From positions 1 to 61,597 of the forward strand of contig CALXRZ010000002.1 in assembly GCA_944391015.1 (NCBI GenBank): a DNA stretch of 61,597 nt. Reading direction: 5' to 3'. The translations under genes were made by a program, and so were the position numbers. The stretch comes from an uncultured Clostridia bacterium (lineage in GTDB: Bacteria; Bacillota; Clostridia; TANB77; CAG-508). The notes beneath the pieces are model-generated. The model saw only the letters and a program-made list of their open reading frames with translations. It ran no database searches and was not told the DNA's origin. Below, piece by piece: positions 6,922-61,421 of the stretch. The number at the start of each line of letters is the position of its first letter. Within the stretch, counting starts at the first letter, position 1.

Positions 6922-6962
6922 CAAAATTAGAAAAAGGGGACAGTCCCCTTTTTCTAATTTTG
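6922..6962. terminator. Bidirectional terminator
   Basis: Near-perfect palindrome CAAAATTAGAAAAAGGGGAC / GTCCCCTTTTTCTAATTTTG. Confidence 0.8.
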
Positions 6963-8637: not shown

Positions 8638-8722
8638 TGGTGCGAGTAATGGGACTTGAACCCATACGCTATAAAGCACACGCCCCTCAAACGTGCCTGT
8701 CTGCCAGTTCCAGCATACTCGC
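8638..8722 (-). tRNA. tRNA-Leu (anticodon GAG), class II with long variable arm, CCA encoded
   Basis: Acceptor GCGAGTA/TACTCGC; anticodon stem CACGT/GCGTG with loop TTGAGGG; T arm GGGTTCAAGTCCC; 85 nt. Confidence 0.9.
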
Positions 8723-8772: not shown

Positions 8773-9052
8773 AAAAAAGTTTGTGGCTTTGAAATTACAT
8801 AAAAGCTATATTTATTATACGGTTAGAGTGGGCTTCTAAAAAAAGTATGAAAATATGGAATGGAGAGTACTTTGAATTAGAAATTCTTAAATAATTTTAT
8901 GGAAAGAGTTCATCTTTGATGGAAAGGTGCCATAAAATTATTTTAGAATTTCTATGAAAAAGTAGCTGGACCGACATATTTGAAATACTTTTTTTAGAAG
9001 TTTACTCTAACTGATTAAATAATTTATGTAGTTTTATATCCACAAACTTTTT
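8773..9052. repeat. Long nested palindromic element, copy A (conserved 191-bp core 8821..9011)
   Basis: Core about 95% identical by eye to 60976..61166; terminal inverted repeats GGTTAGAGTGGGCTTCTAAAAAAAGTAT / ATACTTTTTTTAGAAGTTTACTCTAAC; outer locus-specific arms AAAAAAGTTTGTGG / CCACAAACTTTTT. Confidence 0.85.
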
Positions 9053-29753: not shown

Positions 29754-30734
29754 TCACACAAAGTTTAAAGGATTAGACTCAACTGCGTTTCTAACTTGTT
29801 CGTTACTAACGTGAGTATATATTTCAGTAGTTGCAATACTTTCGTGACCTAAAAGTTCTTGTAAGGCGCGTATGTCTACGTGCCCATATTGATACATTAA
29901 AGTAGCCGCAGTGTGTCTTAATTTGTGAGTAGAATATTTAGAGGTATCTAAGCCAGCTTTCATTAGTTCTCGTTCGACTATATACTGTACCATACGGTTG
30001 CTGATTCGTTCTTTTCTTTTACTTAAAAATAATGCTTTATTAGAGCCTTTTGAATCAACTTTAACACCTTCTTTTGGCCTAACAGACATATAATCTTGTA
30101 TCGCTTTTATACAAGATCCATTTAGGTAAATAGTGCGCTCTTTGTTACCTTTACCTATTACAGTAAGTCTATTTTCACTAAAATCAATATTTGAAATATT
30201 GATTCCTACTAGCTCTGACAAACGCAATCCACAATTTAGAAATAGCGTAATAATAGCATAATCTCTTTCTTTGTTTTCATCATTTTCATCAGCTGTAACA
30301 TTTAAAAGCTTTTTACTATCATCCAAAGACAAATATTTAGGCATACGTTTTTCTTGTTTAGGAGTTTTTATACCTATAGCAGGATTGTCATCAATTAGTT
30401 TTTGATCAAATAAATATGCAAAAAATATTCTTATGGTAGATATTTTTCTCGCTCTAGTAGCAGGCTTGCTCCCTTGATTTAAAGCAAGGTAGGAGAGAAA
30501 GGAGTTAATATCATTTGTAGTTATTTTTTTTAAAGTTTGTATATCGAAATCTTTAATATTTATTTTAGAAAAGTCATTTTCTTTAGTTAATTTAAAGTTG
30601 ATTTTCATATATTTTAAAAACATATTTAAGTCATAATTATATTCTTTAACAGAATTTGGAGATTTATTTAGAACCACAGCTGAATAGTCTAAAAATGAAT
30701 TTATGTATTCGGGATTTAAATCAGAATTTATCAT
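29754..30734 (-). CDS. Tyrosine site-specific recombinase (XerC/XerD-like integrase)
   Basis: SAM-like N-terminal domain; HKLRHTAAT and LLGHESIATTEIYTHV catalytic blocks. Confidence 0.9.
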   Translation of the reverse strand: MINSDLNPEYINSFLDYSAVVLNKSPNSVKEYNYDLNMFLKYMKINFKLTKENDFSKINIKDFDIQTLKKITTNDINSFLSYLALNQGSKPATRARKISTIRIFFAYLFDQKLIDDNPAIGIKTPKQEKRMPKYLSLDDSKKLLNVTADENDENKERDYAIITLFLNCGLRLSELVGINISNIDFSENRLTVIGKGNKERTIYLNGSCIKAIQDYMSVRPKEGVKVDSKGSNKALFLSKRKERISNRMVQYIVERELMKAGLDTSKYSTHKLRHTAATLMYQYGHVDIRALQELLGHESIATTEIYTHVSNEQVRNAVESNPLNFV

Positions 30735-30946
30735 AATATGTTCACCTCTAAAATTTCGTTTGTTATAATATCCTTTTACTAAAATATTTAGATATTATAA
30801 CGTGATTTTTATCATAGTTTTTTAATTGCACAAAATGTTCTGAAAATAATATATACTAATTTTGTAATAAATTCAAGAAATTTACTTGATTTTTTCAGCA
30901 AAATATTTCATAATGATAATTATAAATAGCAAAGGGAGAATTAAGT

Positions 30947-31936
30947 ATGAACAGTAATATTGAAAATGTTGAAAAAATGATAATAGAAAATTTACAAAAT
31001 AAAATTTATTTTAATATGAGCATTAGCTATAGCGAATTTTTGAACTTATATAATCCATACAAGGAGATAGTTAGTGAGGAAGAATTTGCAAAGATTTTAG
31101 GAATAAGCTATGACAACTTAATAATTATGAAGTATAGAGGAACTAGATCTAAAATTAAAACTTCACTTTTAGAAAATAAAGTTTCAGAGGAAAGACTAAG
31201 TCAAATTAAGGAAACATTAAAAAGTCAAGGATTAGAAAATGCAACTATAGATTATGATAAATTTTTACAATTATATGAACAATTTAAATTTGAAATGTCA
31301 GAACCAGAATTTGCACAGTTAATAGGTATTTCTTATACCAACTGGAGTAATATGAAAAATGCAAATTCAAGAGCGATAATACTAAAATCTACAAGCAAAC
31401 CAATATCTGAAGAAAGAAAAGATGAAATCAAACAAAAAATTATAAAAAGTGGTTATGCCAATAAACTTATAGGTTATGAAGAATTTTTGCAATTATTTAA
31501 TCAATTTAAAGGAGAAATGATAGAATCCGATTTTGCACAATTGTTAGGCATTACTTATTTGAATTGGAATAATTTGAAAACTGGTAAAAGAAGAGTAAGA
31601 ATTTTAAAGTTAAATGATGAAAATACGGTTGAAGAAGATAAAGCAATAAAGAGCTCAAGTATTCATTCTATAGAAGAAATAAAGCAACAAGTAGAAATGC
31701 AGATAAGTGAAAGCTCAACTCCTATAGATGTAATGCAAATGTGCTTACAAGCTGGAATGAAAAGAAATCAAACTTTAAAATATTGTATGGATAAATTTAG
31801 CTTAACTAAAACAGAACTTTTGAAGATGATAACACAATGCTTGCAAGATAAGAAAACGAGTAAAAATGTAATGAAAGAGAATCGTAAGAATAAAGACATA
31901 GGGGAGAATAAAGGCTCTGATAACAAATGTATTTAA
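30947..31936 (+). CDS. Hypothetical protein with three tandem HTH-like repeats
   Basis: Three repeats of about 75 aa of the type I.Y.(E/K)FL.L(Y/F)N.(Y/F)K.E(M/I).E.(E/D)FA.(I/L)LGI(S/T)Y.N; divergent from the recombinase gene. Confidence 0.6.
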   Translation: MNSNIENVEKMIIENLQNKIYFNMSISYSEFLNLYNPYKEIVSEEEFAKILGISYDNLIIMKYRGTRSKIKTSLLENKVSEERLSQIKETLKSQGLENATIDYDKFLQLYEQFKFEMSEPEFAQLIGISYTNWSNMKNANSRAIILKSTSKPISEERKDEIKQKIIKSGYANKLIGYEEFLQLFNQFKGEMIESDFAQLLGITYLNWNNLKTGKRRVRILKLNDENTVEEDKAIKSSSIHSIEEIKQQVEMQISESSTPIDVMQMCLQAGMKRNQTLKYCMDKFSLTKTELLKMITQCLQDKKTSKNVMKENRKNKDIGENKGSDNKCI

Positions 31937-32288
31937 TTTTTTAAGACTATGATAAAATGAAATGACAGAAATATTAAGAGTTGATTACGAGAAATGGGCT
32001 CCAATTGCCCAATCTGGTTCAATCAACTCTGTATAAATAATATATCATAAGTTTATGTAATAGCCAATATAAAGTTAATGCTAATTTTTATATAAAAAAT
32101 AATATAAAAATTTTTATTCTGTAAATAATTAGAAAGGGGAAATGATGGCACTTTCAAAAGAACAAACAATGTTATTGGACTTATTAAAGAGTTTAAAATT
32201 TGTATGATTTAAATATTTACTTGTATGCAAGATATTTAGTATAGAATAAGAAGTAGGGAGTGCAATAAATAACTCATATAAAAAAGGA

Positions 32289-53095: not shown

Positions 53096-53470
53096 GATGC
53101 CTAAAAAAGCTAGCACACAGGTTTTCAAAAAAATTTCTGATTGTCCTGAATTATTTCAGTTAGCAGAGGTGTGTCTAAAAAAATAGTATGAAAAGATGGA
53201 ATTGAAAGTGACTTGAGCATACAAATACTAAGAAAATTTTGGTAGGGAATCTCGCACACTTGTGAGGGCGCTACCAAAATTTCTCATAGTATTTGTGCTA
53301 AACTCAGCTTGAACGACAGATTTTCATACTATTTTTTTAGACATATCTCTGCTAATTTTTTAAGCATTCTATTCCAAGTTTTTAGACATACCCCTGCTAA
53401 TTTTTTAAGCATTATATCCTAAGTTTCTAGACACACTGTGACACATACTGTGCTAGCTTTTTTAGGCATC
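53096..53470. repeat. 375-bp three-layer nested palindrome with an internal 45-bp tandem duplication
   Basis: Outer arms GATGCCTAAAAAAGCTAGCACA / TGTGCTAGCTTTTTTAGGCATC; middle arms related to the 8821/60976 cores; centre GAAAATTTTGGTAG / CTACCAAAATTTC; tandem units 53334..53378 and 53379..53423. Confidence 0.85.
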
Positions 53471-60919: not shown

Positions 60920-61217
60920 GTTACTTTGATAATGTTTTTTATACTTTGCAATTTAAATAAACATTTTATTAAGTAGGTTAGAGTAGGCTTCTAAAAAAAG
61001 TATGAAAATATGGAATGGAGAGTACTTTGAGTTAGAAATTCTTAATAAATTTTATGGAAAGAGTTCATCTCGATGGAAGGGTGCCATAAAATTTATTTAG
61101 AATTTCTATGAAAAAGTAGCTGGACCGACATATTTGAAATACTTTTTTTAGAAGTTTACTCTAACCATAATTATAATTGCAAAAATTGCAAAGTATAAAA
61201 ACCATTATCAAAGTAAC
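60920..61217. repeat. Long nested palindromic element, copy B (core 60976..61166)
   Basis: Core about 95% identical to 8821..9011; outer locus-specific arms GTTACTTTGATAATGTTTTTTATACTTTGCAATT / AATTGCAAAGTATAAAAACCATTATCAAAGTAAC. Confidence 0.85.
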
Positions 61218-61291: not shown

Positions 61292-61381
61292 ATGTCAGAA
61301 AACAATAATTCAAAGAAAAACAACAAAAAGAATAATGGAAAACAAAACGAAAATAATAATAGAAACAATAATAATCAATAA
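61292..61381 (+). CDS. Candidate 29-aa Asn/Lys-rich small protein
   Basis: MSENNNSKKNNKKNNGKQNENNNRNNNNQ; GGAGGTG RBS 7 nt upstream; terminator hairpin downstream; not in the ORF track (too short). Confidence 0.35.
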   Translation: MSENNNSKKNNKKNNGKQNENNNRNNNNQ

Positions 61382-61421
61382 TTAAATTACTCTTTCTCTT
61401 ATTTTTATAACTAGTAATTCA

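Follow-up and report, generated by a model that had tools for sequence, protein, structure and literature searches.

A Dispersed Long-hairpin Repeat Family of Gut Clostridia (TANB77) with Mirrored Arm Changes, Inversion in Place, and Conserved Asymmetric Loops

The segment at positions 8773-9052 of the 61,597-nucleotide stretch of DNA analyzed here (termed the window) is one copy of a dispersed hairpin repeat family, with many copies in its own genome and in related genomes rather than only the two seen at first in the window. The preferred reading, given a probability of about 0.6, is that of a selfish, MITE/REPIN-like non-coding foldback repeat of the gut Clostridia order TANB77, whose arms exchange sequence and whose center carries a strand-specific module. 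Each copy is built as one long quasi-palindrome with a conserved center of ~150 nt surrounded by self-complementary layers that are successively less conserved outward, the center holding three asymmetric internal loops of conserved sequence (M1/M2 and the apex AAAGAG/AGGGUG) and the palindrome ending in a few locus-specific bases. The repeat is undescribed, and an earlier sequence-only reading of the window was right to take it for a hairpin repeat family.

RESULTS

Architecture of the Copies in the Window

The window has a G+C content of ~28% and belongs to a MAG (G000) of 1.51 Mb in 83 contigs that is 85% complete. Core A (8821-9011) and core B (60976-61165/6) are 95.3% identical over 191 aligned columns, in line with the ~95% first estimated, and each forms one long near-perfect hairpin. 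RNA folding of core A gives -79.4 kcal/mol for the + strand (z = -12) and -63.0 kcal/mol for the - strand (z = -14), the + strand folding 16 kcal/mol better than the - strand, and the whole of 8773-9052 folds end to end as single-stranded DNA with -62.3 (+) and -56.7 (-) kcal/mol (z of about -13 to -14).

The layers of copy A, all given on the + strand, are arranged around the apex. The outermost left arm AAAAAAGTTTGTGG (8773-8786) pairs with the outermost right arm (9040-9052), and inside it a left middle layer or junction (8787-8820) pairs imperfectly with the right junction (9012-9039). The 191-bp core (8821-9011), which is the part matched by BLAST, nhmmer, and covariance model (CM), has the subfamily ends GGTTAGAGTGGGC...GTTTACTCTAAC and includes a basal stem in which the A-tract CTAAAAAAAG (8836-8845) pairs with the T-tract at 8988-8997. 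Further in, a large internal loop is formed by the unpaired motifs M1 (ATATGGAATGGAGAG, 8853-8867) on its 5' side and M2 (AGCTGGACCGACAT / AGCTKGACCGACAT, 8964-8977) on its 3' side, and the hairpin is closed by the apex module TTTTATGG-AAAGAG-TTCATC ttt GATGGA-AAGGTG-CCATAAAA (8895-8937). Copy B with its nested arms spans 60920-61217 (+ strand, core 60976-61166), the outer arms being 60920-60934/61203-61217 and the second layer 60940-60954/61183-61197. A third, diverged copy with a type-2 apex GGTAGGGAATCTCGCACACTTGTGAGGGCGCTACC is placed at 53162-53356 on the + strand (nhmmer E = 1.6e-20; CM 121 bits at 53177-53335).

The mirrored dinucleotide swap described between the two cores is present as CTTAAATAATTTT/AAAATTATTTTAG in A and CTTAATAAATTTT/AAAATTTATTTAG in B. 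The 15-aa and 32-aa open reading frames of the two copies can be read in the sequence and no frame is conserved between them, and copy A adjoins a tRNA-Leu(GAG) gene on the - strand (8638-8722), both as originally noted. Right of copy B an Asn/Lys-rich 29-aa open reading frame (MSENNNSKKNNKKNNGKQNENNNRNNNNQ) is followed by a hairpin (61293-61382), which may be a small protein gene or an accident of composition. Elsewhere in the window, at ~31000-32000, both GC skew and AT skew reverse their sign (with the cumulative skew at its maximum, ~2.47, in the 30001-32000 bin) and the gene strand changes from + to -, as would fit a replication terminus (or origin) within the window.

Size and Distribution of the Family

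G000 contains 24 BLAST matches to the repeat and, by covariance model, 11 distinct full-length + strand loci, the third window copy included, together with five remnants, a copy count far beyond chance. The repeat is 190-330 bases long, and every copy in G000 is intergenic, with both orientations relative to the neighboring genes represented. A stretch shared by contigs C4 (15796-18985) and C20 (16064-19253) carries an identical repeat copy with flanks identical over more than 3 kb and is probably an assembly artifact (a duplicated stretch) and not two loci.

BLAST detects the repeat in 15 of 40 other genomes (0 to 20 matches each), 12 of these belonging to the same genus and the other three having a single weak partial match each. 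Distribution within that one genus is patchy, with sister species carrying anything from none to over 20 copies. When one genome per species is scanned for the motif, 76 loci emerge, all in ~12 uncultured Clostridia/Clostridium gut MAGs; the motif scan of viral contigs gives no matches, and a repeat scan of JGI/ENA metagenome contigs gives nine, on short contigs only. Of 151 genomes from the order TANB77, 25 have matches to the covariance model built from the genus; these extend to 9 of 28 sampled genera and to two other families, and on inspection these are real relatives of the repeat. Rfam 15 (including 6S, TwoAYGGAY, and ribozymes) has no match in the window at the gathering score, and at E <= 10 it returns only chance miRNA-hairpin matches for the repeat.

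Conserved Loops and Pairing of the Center

The anatomy of the family was read from an alignment of 67 distinct cores and the pairing statistics from 36 diverse copies. Across the 67 cores the stems vary and covary, and M1, M2, the apex, and the basal tracts are nearly invariant. M1, at least 97% conserved among the 67 distinct copies, lies opposite M2 in a roughly 10x10 internal loop, and a looser version of the pair (CGAAUGYGAUUGGAG / GUAUUGARCCGAG) is found order-wide. M2 survives even in the deletion remnants C3, C10, and C47. The apex module has the form GG-AAAGAG-[TTC..hairpin..GGA]-AGGGTG-CC or is of the related type-2 form. At the base of the hairpin the A7/T7 tract pair is nearly invariant among copies (in 32-36 of the 36 sequences of alignment A2, columns 5-8 form A-U pairs with columns 170-173), an arrangement whose geometry may be terminator-like.

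Arm changes are mirrored in the family at large, as in the two window cores, with 96.5% of the cells in the 36 copies being standard pairs. Both sides have changed in 25 of 53 pairs, and the both-sides-changed cells number 233 compared with 66 in shuffles (0 of 500 shuffles reach 233) and no more than 31 with slid partners. Two-sided changes exceed one-sided (wobble) states about tenfold. On the strand with M1 5' of M2, G.U exceeds A.C by 205 to 32 cells and by 13 to 3 columns, which marks this strand as the better-pairing one. Among 42 distinct apex versions from at least eight genera, both loop sequences are kept (TTTTATGG-AAAGAG-TTC...GGA-AGGGTG-CCATAAAA) while the closing stem covaries (ATGG/CCAT, GTGG/CCAC, CTGG/CCAG, ACGG/CCGT) and the terminal hairpin, of differing length, shows free covariation, U.G alternating with U-A. 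The terminal hairpin of the apex is enlarged in four distant relatives, L196 (G154), L198 (G100), L201 (G162), and L205 (G181), by a common insert, CGTCGAGCG(T)TAGCGAGGACTAAGTG, that resembles a conserved sub-module of its own.

Inversion in Place

In inverted copies the reverse-complemented left flank matches the right flank of the ortholog over ~100 nt (scores 50-84). Both orientations occur in 9 of 16 orthologous groups of 2-4 genomes each, the difference being seen between genomes only, compared with ~10.8 of 16 expected by our arithmetic for fully randomized orientation. What inverts as one unit is the core with its junctions and the inner portions of the arms, between unique flanks that are still collinear and almost the same in sequence. 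Switch points map inside the outer arms or, for the pair L063/L067, inside a perfect basal stem. Such variable crossover points in locus-specific repeats favor homology-driven exchange over a site-specific invertase. Two MAGs with flanks 93.7% identical differ by inversion at 4 of 11 common copies, from which the inversion rate per locus is estimated at ~20 times the per-site substitution rate. A rate only this far above substitution is evolutionary and not that of phase variation, and a dedicated invertase is unnecessary to account for it. Copy orientation relative to the flanking GC skew is divided 29:47 (p = 0.05), a value obtained from copies that are not independent.

Outer Arms and Mirrored Change

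The sequence-only reading placed each core at the apex of a longer palindrome with arms unrelated between loci. The longer palindrome is a general feature, with self-complementary flanks on every full copy and arm-versus-arm scores of median 16 compared with 8.5 for mismatched loci; the arms, however, are in part related, several loci having a common outer layer (nATAATGGTTTTATAMTTTACAATT). Truly locus-specific sequence is limited to the outermost 3-16 nt and a 12-25-nt imperfect junction beside the GGTTAGAG end. These flank comparisons were made by local alignments, and the arm changes were scored by four-arm site patterns, owing to the AT-rich DNA and the indels.

Mirrored changes, including indels and multi-base patches, extend into the non-conserved outer arms of orthologs. 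The left arm of copy A is AAAAAAGTTTGTGG compared with GAAAAAGTTTATAACTGCAAAACT in the ortholog of G048/BRZ_ML bin92, and both arms differ together. The outer arms of C7 and L127 read agggttggtt/aaccaaccct and attggggtaa/ttaccccaat, and those of copy B and L109 ctttgataatg/cattatcaaag and cttcataatgg/ccttatgaag. In the copy B orthologs L099, L109, and L112 the outer-arm changes are mirrored with one indel included, and mirrored patches or indels also distinguish C10 from L116 and C55 from L066. The four-arm patterns contain 37 XXYY sites, at which the two arms of one genome agree in differing from the two arms of the other, and 174 indel columns of this concerted kind, compared with 172 single-arm changes. 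At the observed rate of single changes, independent hits would by our estimate give ~1 XXYY site. There are also 211 stable arm-specific differences, and the persistence of so many mismatches shows that homogenization is not frequent. Arms can diverge faster than the adjoining unique spacer, as in L088 and C4:42736, where ~8 of 19 arm positions differ compared with ~2 of 40 flank positions.

The compensated changes emphasized at the outset are thus mirrored as described, but they do not by themselves prove selection for pairing, because mirrored change also occurs in non-conserved outer arms and because whole elements invert. Selection for pairing may nonetheless contribute to the compensation.

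Gain, Loss, and Replacement of Copies

Copies are gained, lost, internally deleted, and replaced in the manner of selfish DNA. In the remnants C3 and C10 everything between two TATGAAAAT direct repeats is deleted and in the remnant C7 the deletion lies between TACTTT repeats, the orthologs of all three in sister MAGs being full length; two further short hairpin copies, C47 and C8:70, complete the five remnants. The history of locus A is similarly varied. In G048 the element is present with outer arms that are different yet again match each other, and in G043 it is a flipped, deleted remnant with a right arm that is the exact reverse complement of the G000 left arm plus junction (8787-8820). 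The more distant species G020 and G024 are without the element, and in G020 the whole block corresponding to 8778-9048 is absent with a short hairpin in its place.

Two empty sites in G000 are clean and have no hairpin (C12:~1500 compared with L073, and C6:~32680 compared with L058). At these sites the core and its outer arms are either both there or both missing, and so behave as one unit. Two other empty sites in G000 have a short hairpin, TAAAATTAT/ATAATTTTA at C16:~8620 and a 15-bp stem at C16:~26560, and the resemblance of the latter to the basal stem of the repeat indicates that it is probably a symmetrized remnant. No direct target-site duplication is found at the element ends in the clean occupied/empty pairs, where very short ones are possible, and the direct-repeat control scores of the flanks are at background (median 8.5 compared with 8.5). 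No sharp, universal element ends can be defined. With neither target duplication nor universal ends, transposition is deduced only from the dispersed near-identical copies.

A third long-hairpin family with the core GGGGACCAAC..ACAAACTGT..ACAGTTTGT..GTTGGGGGC is found in G000 at C76:2083-2384, C7:40667-40999, and C15:18247-18654. The same three spacers hold the repeat studied here in sister MAGs, and the occupation of the same spacers by different hairpin families indicates that hairpin cassettes are exchanged at fixed intergenic sites.

Genes Near the Copies and Candidate Enzymes

Clustering of the genes within 2.2 kb of 86 copies identifies no recurrent enzyme gene, whether transposase, recombinase, or other. 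At one locus only (L056/L063/L067), an open reading frame ~1.1 kb away from the repeat encodes an HNH-like motif (CFYCHEKF...TLDHLYPQ). Around the copies, consensus scans find neither promoters nor terminators above chance. A search for an IS200/IS605-type transposase, proposed in the sequence-only reading, leads to a RAYT-like Y1 gene of 253 aa at C12:27835-28596 (NF047646, 70.6 bits, below the cut-off of 80), but the presence of Y1 does not track copy number. A Y1_Tnp match occurs in 27 of 38 genomes of the genus; G006 has eight matches to the long-hairpin repeat (both strands counted) and no Y1 match, and several genomes with Y1 carry no copies. The RAYT-like gene is bracketed by two inverted copies of a different REP (GGGGACWGTCCCC / AGAAAWWGGGGACWGTCCCCWWTTTCT, at C12:27745 and C12:28602), which has 11 copies in G000, one of them in the window at 6936-6948. 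Of 38 genomes of the genus, 7 carry IS110, and G000 is not among them. The repeat was also considered as an IS110 target or bridge-RNA-associated repeat, and this was rejected, there being no family match within 1.5 kb of eight IS110 copies.

DISCUSSION

The inversions and the concerted change of the arms are direct observations, and the enzymology proposed for them is the conditional part of the model. Since the arms are inverted repeats, a DNA-level exchange can repeatedly copy one arm onto the other. This exchange would be replication template switching or homologous recombination; it would yield apparently compensated substitutions, mirrored indels, and multi-base patches, and the same event could flip the inter-arm segment in place and let the palindrome creep outward into flanking DNA. 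Template switching is known to homogenize the arms of inverted repeats, to invert spacers, and to extend inverted repeats (PMC8604942, PMC8794818, PMC13100816), results that ordinary recombination of one arm with the other would also produce. Because template switching is documented mainly for short spacers and the segments inverted here are 150-330 bp, RecA-type recombination may be the route.

The sequence- and strand-specific conservation inside a repeat that otherwise looks selfish suggests recognition of a folded single strand, either single-stranded DNA or RNA. The conserved loops, the conserved U.G, and the 6:1 excess of G.U point to one defined strand of the center as the one that is recognized. 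By analogy with REP/RAYT or IS200/IS605, this would most likely be single-stranded DNA bound by a trans-acting mobilizing enzyme, with RNA as the alternative. A more specific proposal, advanced tentatively as a possibility with the odds against it, is that the ~150-nt center is an undescribed structured module of TANB77, a single-strand recognition site or functional RNA carried on a flip-flop palindromic cassette. It would comprise the M1/M2 bubble and the apex with covarying stems and strand-specific U.G across at least nine genera; a mobilizing or regulatory protein would recognize it, and inversion of the cassette would change the strand that is exposed or transcribed.

Several of these features would also be expected of a multi-copy structured non-coding RNA gene family in which the + strand is transcribed, the hairpin acts as a protein sponge or binding RNA, and compensation is under selection. 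The strong covariation, the one-strand excess of G.U over A.C, the 16 kcal/mol advantage of the + strand, and the purine-rich, GGA-containing loops, kept with the U.G/U-A alternation across genera and families, all agree with such a family. It is nevertheless rather unlikely, given a repeat that has no Rfam family even at E <= 10, varies from 0 to more than 20 copies within one genus, is randomly oriented with respect to neighboring genes, flips in place, and lacks a conserved promoter or terminator context; deletion remnants occur, another family substitutes at the same spacers, and the mirrored changes reach into outer arms that are not conserved. Related candidates were considered and dropped for lack of support: 6S RNA; a small protein gene, the M2-initiated open reading frame varying from 11 to 26 aa with no ribosome-binding site; and a CsrA-type sponge, the GGA motifs being partly base-paired. 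The evidence on an intrinsic (bidirectional) terminator is mixed: conserved A7/T7 tracts bracket the hairpin and many copies lie 30-80 nt past stop codons; no terminator is called by the scan, and the neighbors of copies A, B, and C35 are divergent genes.

The remaining alternatives concern how the element moves or flips. One option of the sequence-only reading, insertion into hairpin apices, would have the mobile core targeting the apices or loops of pre-existing host hairpins such as terminators, with the outer palindromes older than the core. A short hairpin exactly at the position of the element in three empty sites (locus A of G020, C16:~8620, and C16:~26560) and the absence of the element from locus A in the more distant G020 and G024 fit this order of events, which is judged unlikely when set against the two clean empty sites without a hairpin, outer arms that come and go with the core, and outer layers partly common to unrelated loci. 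The three hairpin sites could be either target or deletion remnant, the hairpin at C16:~26560 is probably a symmetrized remnant, and small-hairpin remnants demonstrably arise by internal deletion (C3, C10, and C7). Movement of a REPIN-type population by the single RAYT-like Y1 transposase of the genome would account for the long-hairpin, extragenic, multi-copy, strand-asymmetric design, the gene itself (NF047646, 70.6 bits) and the Y1_Tnp matches in the genus being at hand; the different REP (GGGGACWGTCCCC, 11 copies) flanking that gene, the occurrence of copies without Y1 (G006) and of Y1 without copies, and the lack of a conserved GTAG/CGTC tag make it quite unlikely. Programmed invertons, meaning phase-variable switches that control neighboring genes through a dedicated site-specific invertase, are highly improbable. 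An inverted-repeat-bounded segment is indeed found in both orientations at orthologous loci, and the spacers holding several copies (A, B, and C35) are divergent promoter regions, but the bounding repeats are locus-specific with crossovers that vary between outer arms and basal stem, no recombinase gene is adjacent, no promoter signal exceeds chance, many copies are downstream of genes, and the inversion rate of ~20 times the per-site substitution rate is evolutionary.

The selfish foldback repeat preferred here provides a natural case in which textbook compensatory base changes are better explained by arm-to-arm DNA copying and inversion than by RNA selection alone, and it counsels care when RNAs are sought by covariation in repeat-rich genomes. 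It also puts on record a repeat family from a gut lineage that is uncultured and has small genomes, with turnover of spacers, flipping in place, and competition with other hairpin families for sites, which is of use for typing strains and for tracing how spacers evolve. The asymmetric loops found order-wide point to a strand-specific binding partner that, if found, would define a new mobilization or regulatory system of Clostridia.

Among the closest known systems are the REPIN/REP-BIME elements with their RAYT (TnpAREP) enzymes (PMC3116915, PMC2817692, PMC3733652). The similarities are an extragenic, non-coding, multi-copy, long imperfect hairpin with strand-asymmetric mismatches, vertical persistence in a lineage, a RAYT-like gene in the genome, and probably movement in trans as single-stranded DNA. 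REPINs, however, have conserved REP ends and a variable spacer, whereas here the center is conserved and the ends vary between subfamilies and species. The unit of 190-330 bp compares with REPs of 20-40 bp, there is no GTAG/CGTC tag (the GTAG in M2 is TCAG in most copies), and the host is a member of the Clostridia and not of the Proteobacteria. A cognate RAYT would be flanked by the same repeat, whereas the RAYT-like gene here is flanked by another REP.

Correia repeat-enclosed elements (CREE/NEMIS) and other bacterial MITEs (ERIC, RUP, BOX) are likewise small, non-coding, intergenic, hairpin-forming when transcribed, present in both orientations, and polymorphic for presence or absence between strains. 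The repeat differs from them in that no TA or other target duplication is seen, no recurrent transposase that could mark a parent IS with matching ends is found within 2.2 kb of 86 copies, conservation does not lie in the terminal repeats, the arms are nested and locus-specific at their outermost, and inversion in place is frequent. The invertible promoters of gut bacteria (invertons, with Clostridioides difficile cwpV/flgB as examples, PMC2784873) share the length of 150-330 bp, the bounding inverted repeats, the two orientations, and the gut Firmicutes host; the repeat is distinguished by having no dedicated recombinase, conserved recombination site, or promoter, by an interior that is repeated family sequence, and by an inferred rate that is evolutionary and not that of phase variation. 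With 6S RNA and TwoAYGGAY it has in common a ~190-nt hairpin with a large internal bubble that is asymmetric and with recurring loop motifs that resemble AUGGA, but its many copies in each genome, its flipping, and its deletion remnants do not fit a housekeeping 6S gene. Template-switch (quasipalindrome) mutagenesis in the Ripley model (PMC8604942, PMC8794818, PMC13100816) is a mutational process and not an element, and its documented spacer inversions are of a few bases compared with 150-330 bp here; it accounts for multi-base changes that look "compensatory" yet arise in one step, for the inversion of spacers, and for the extension of inverted repeats, all of which are seen in this family.
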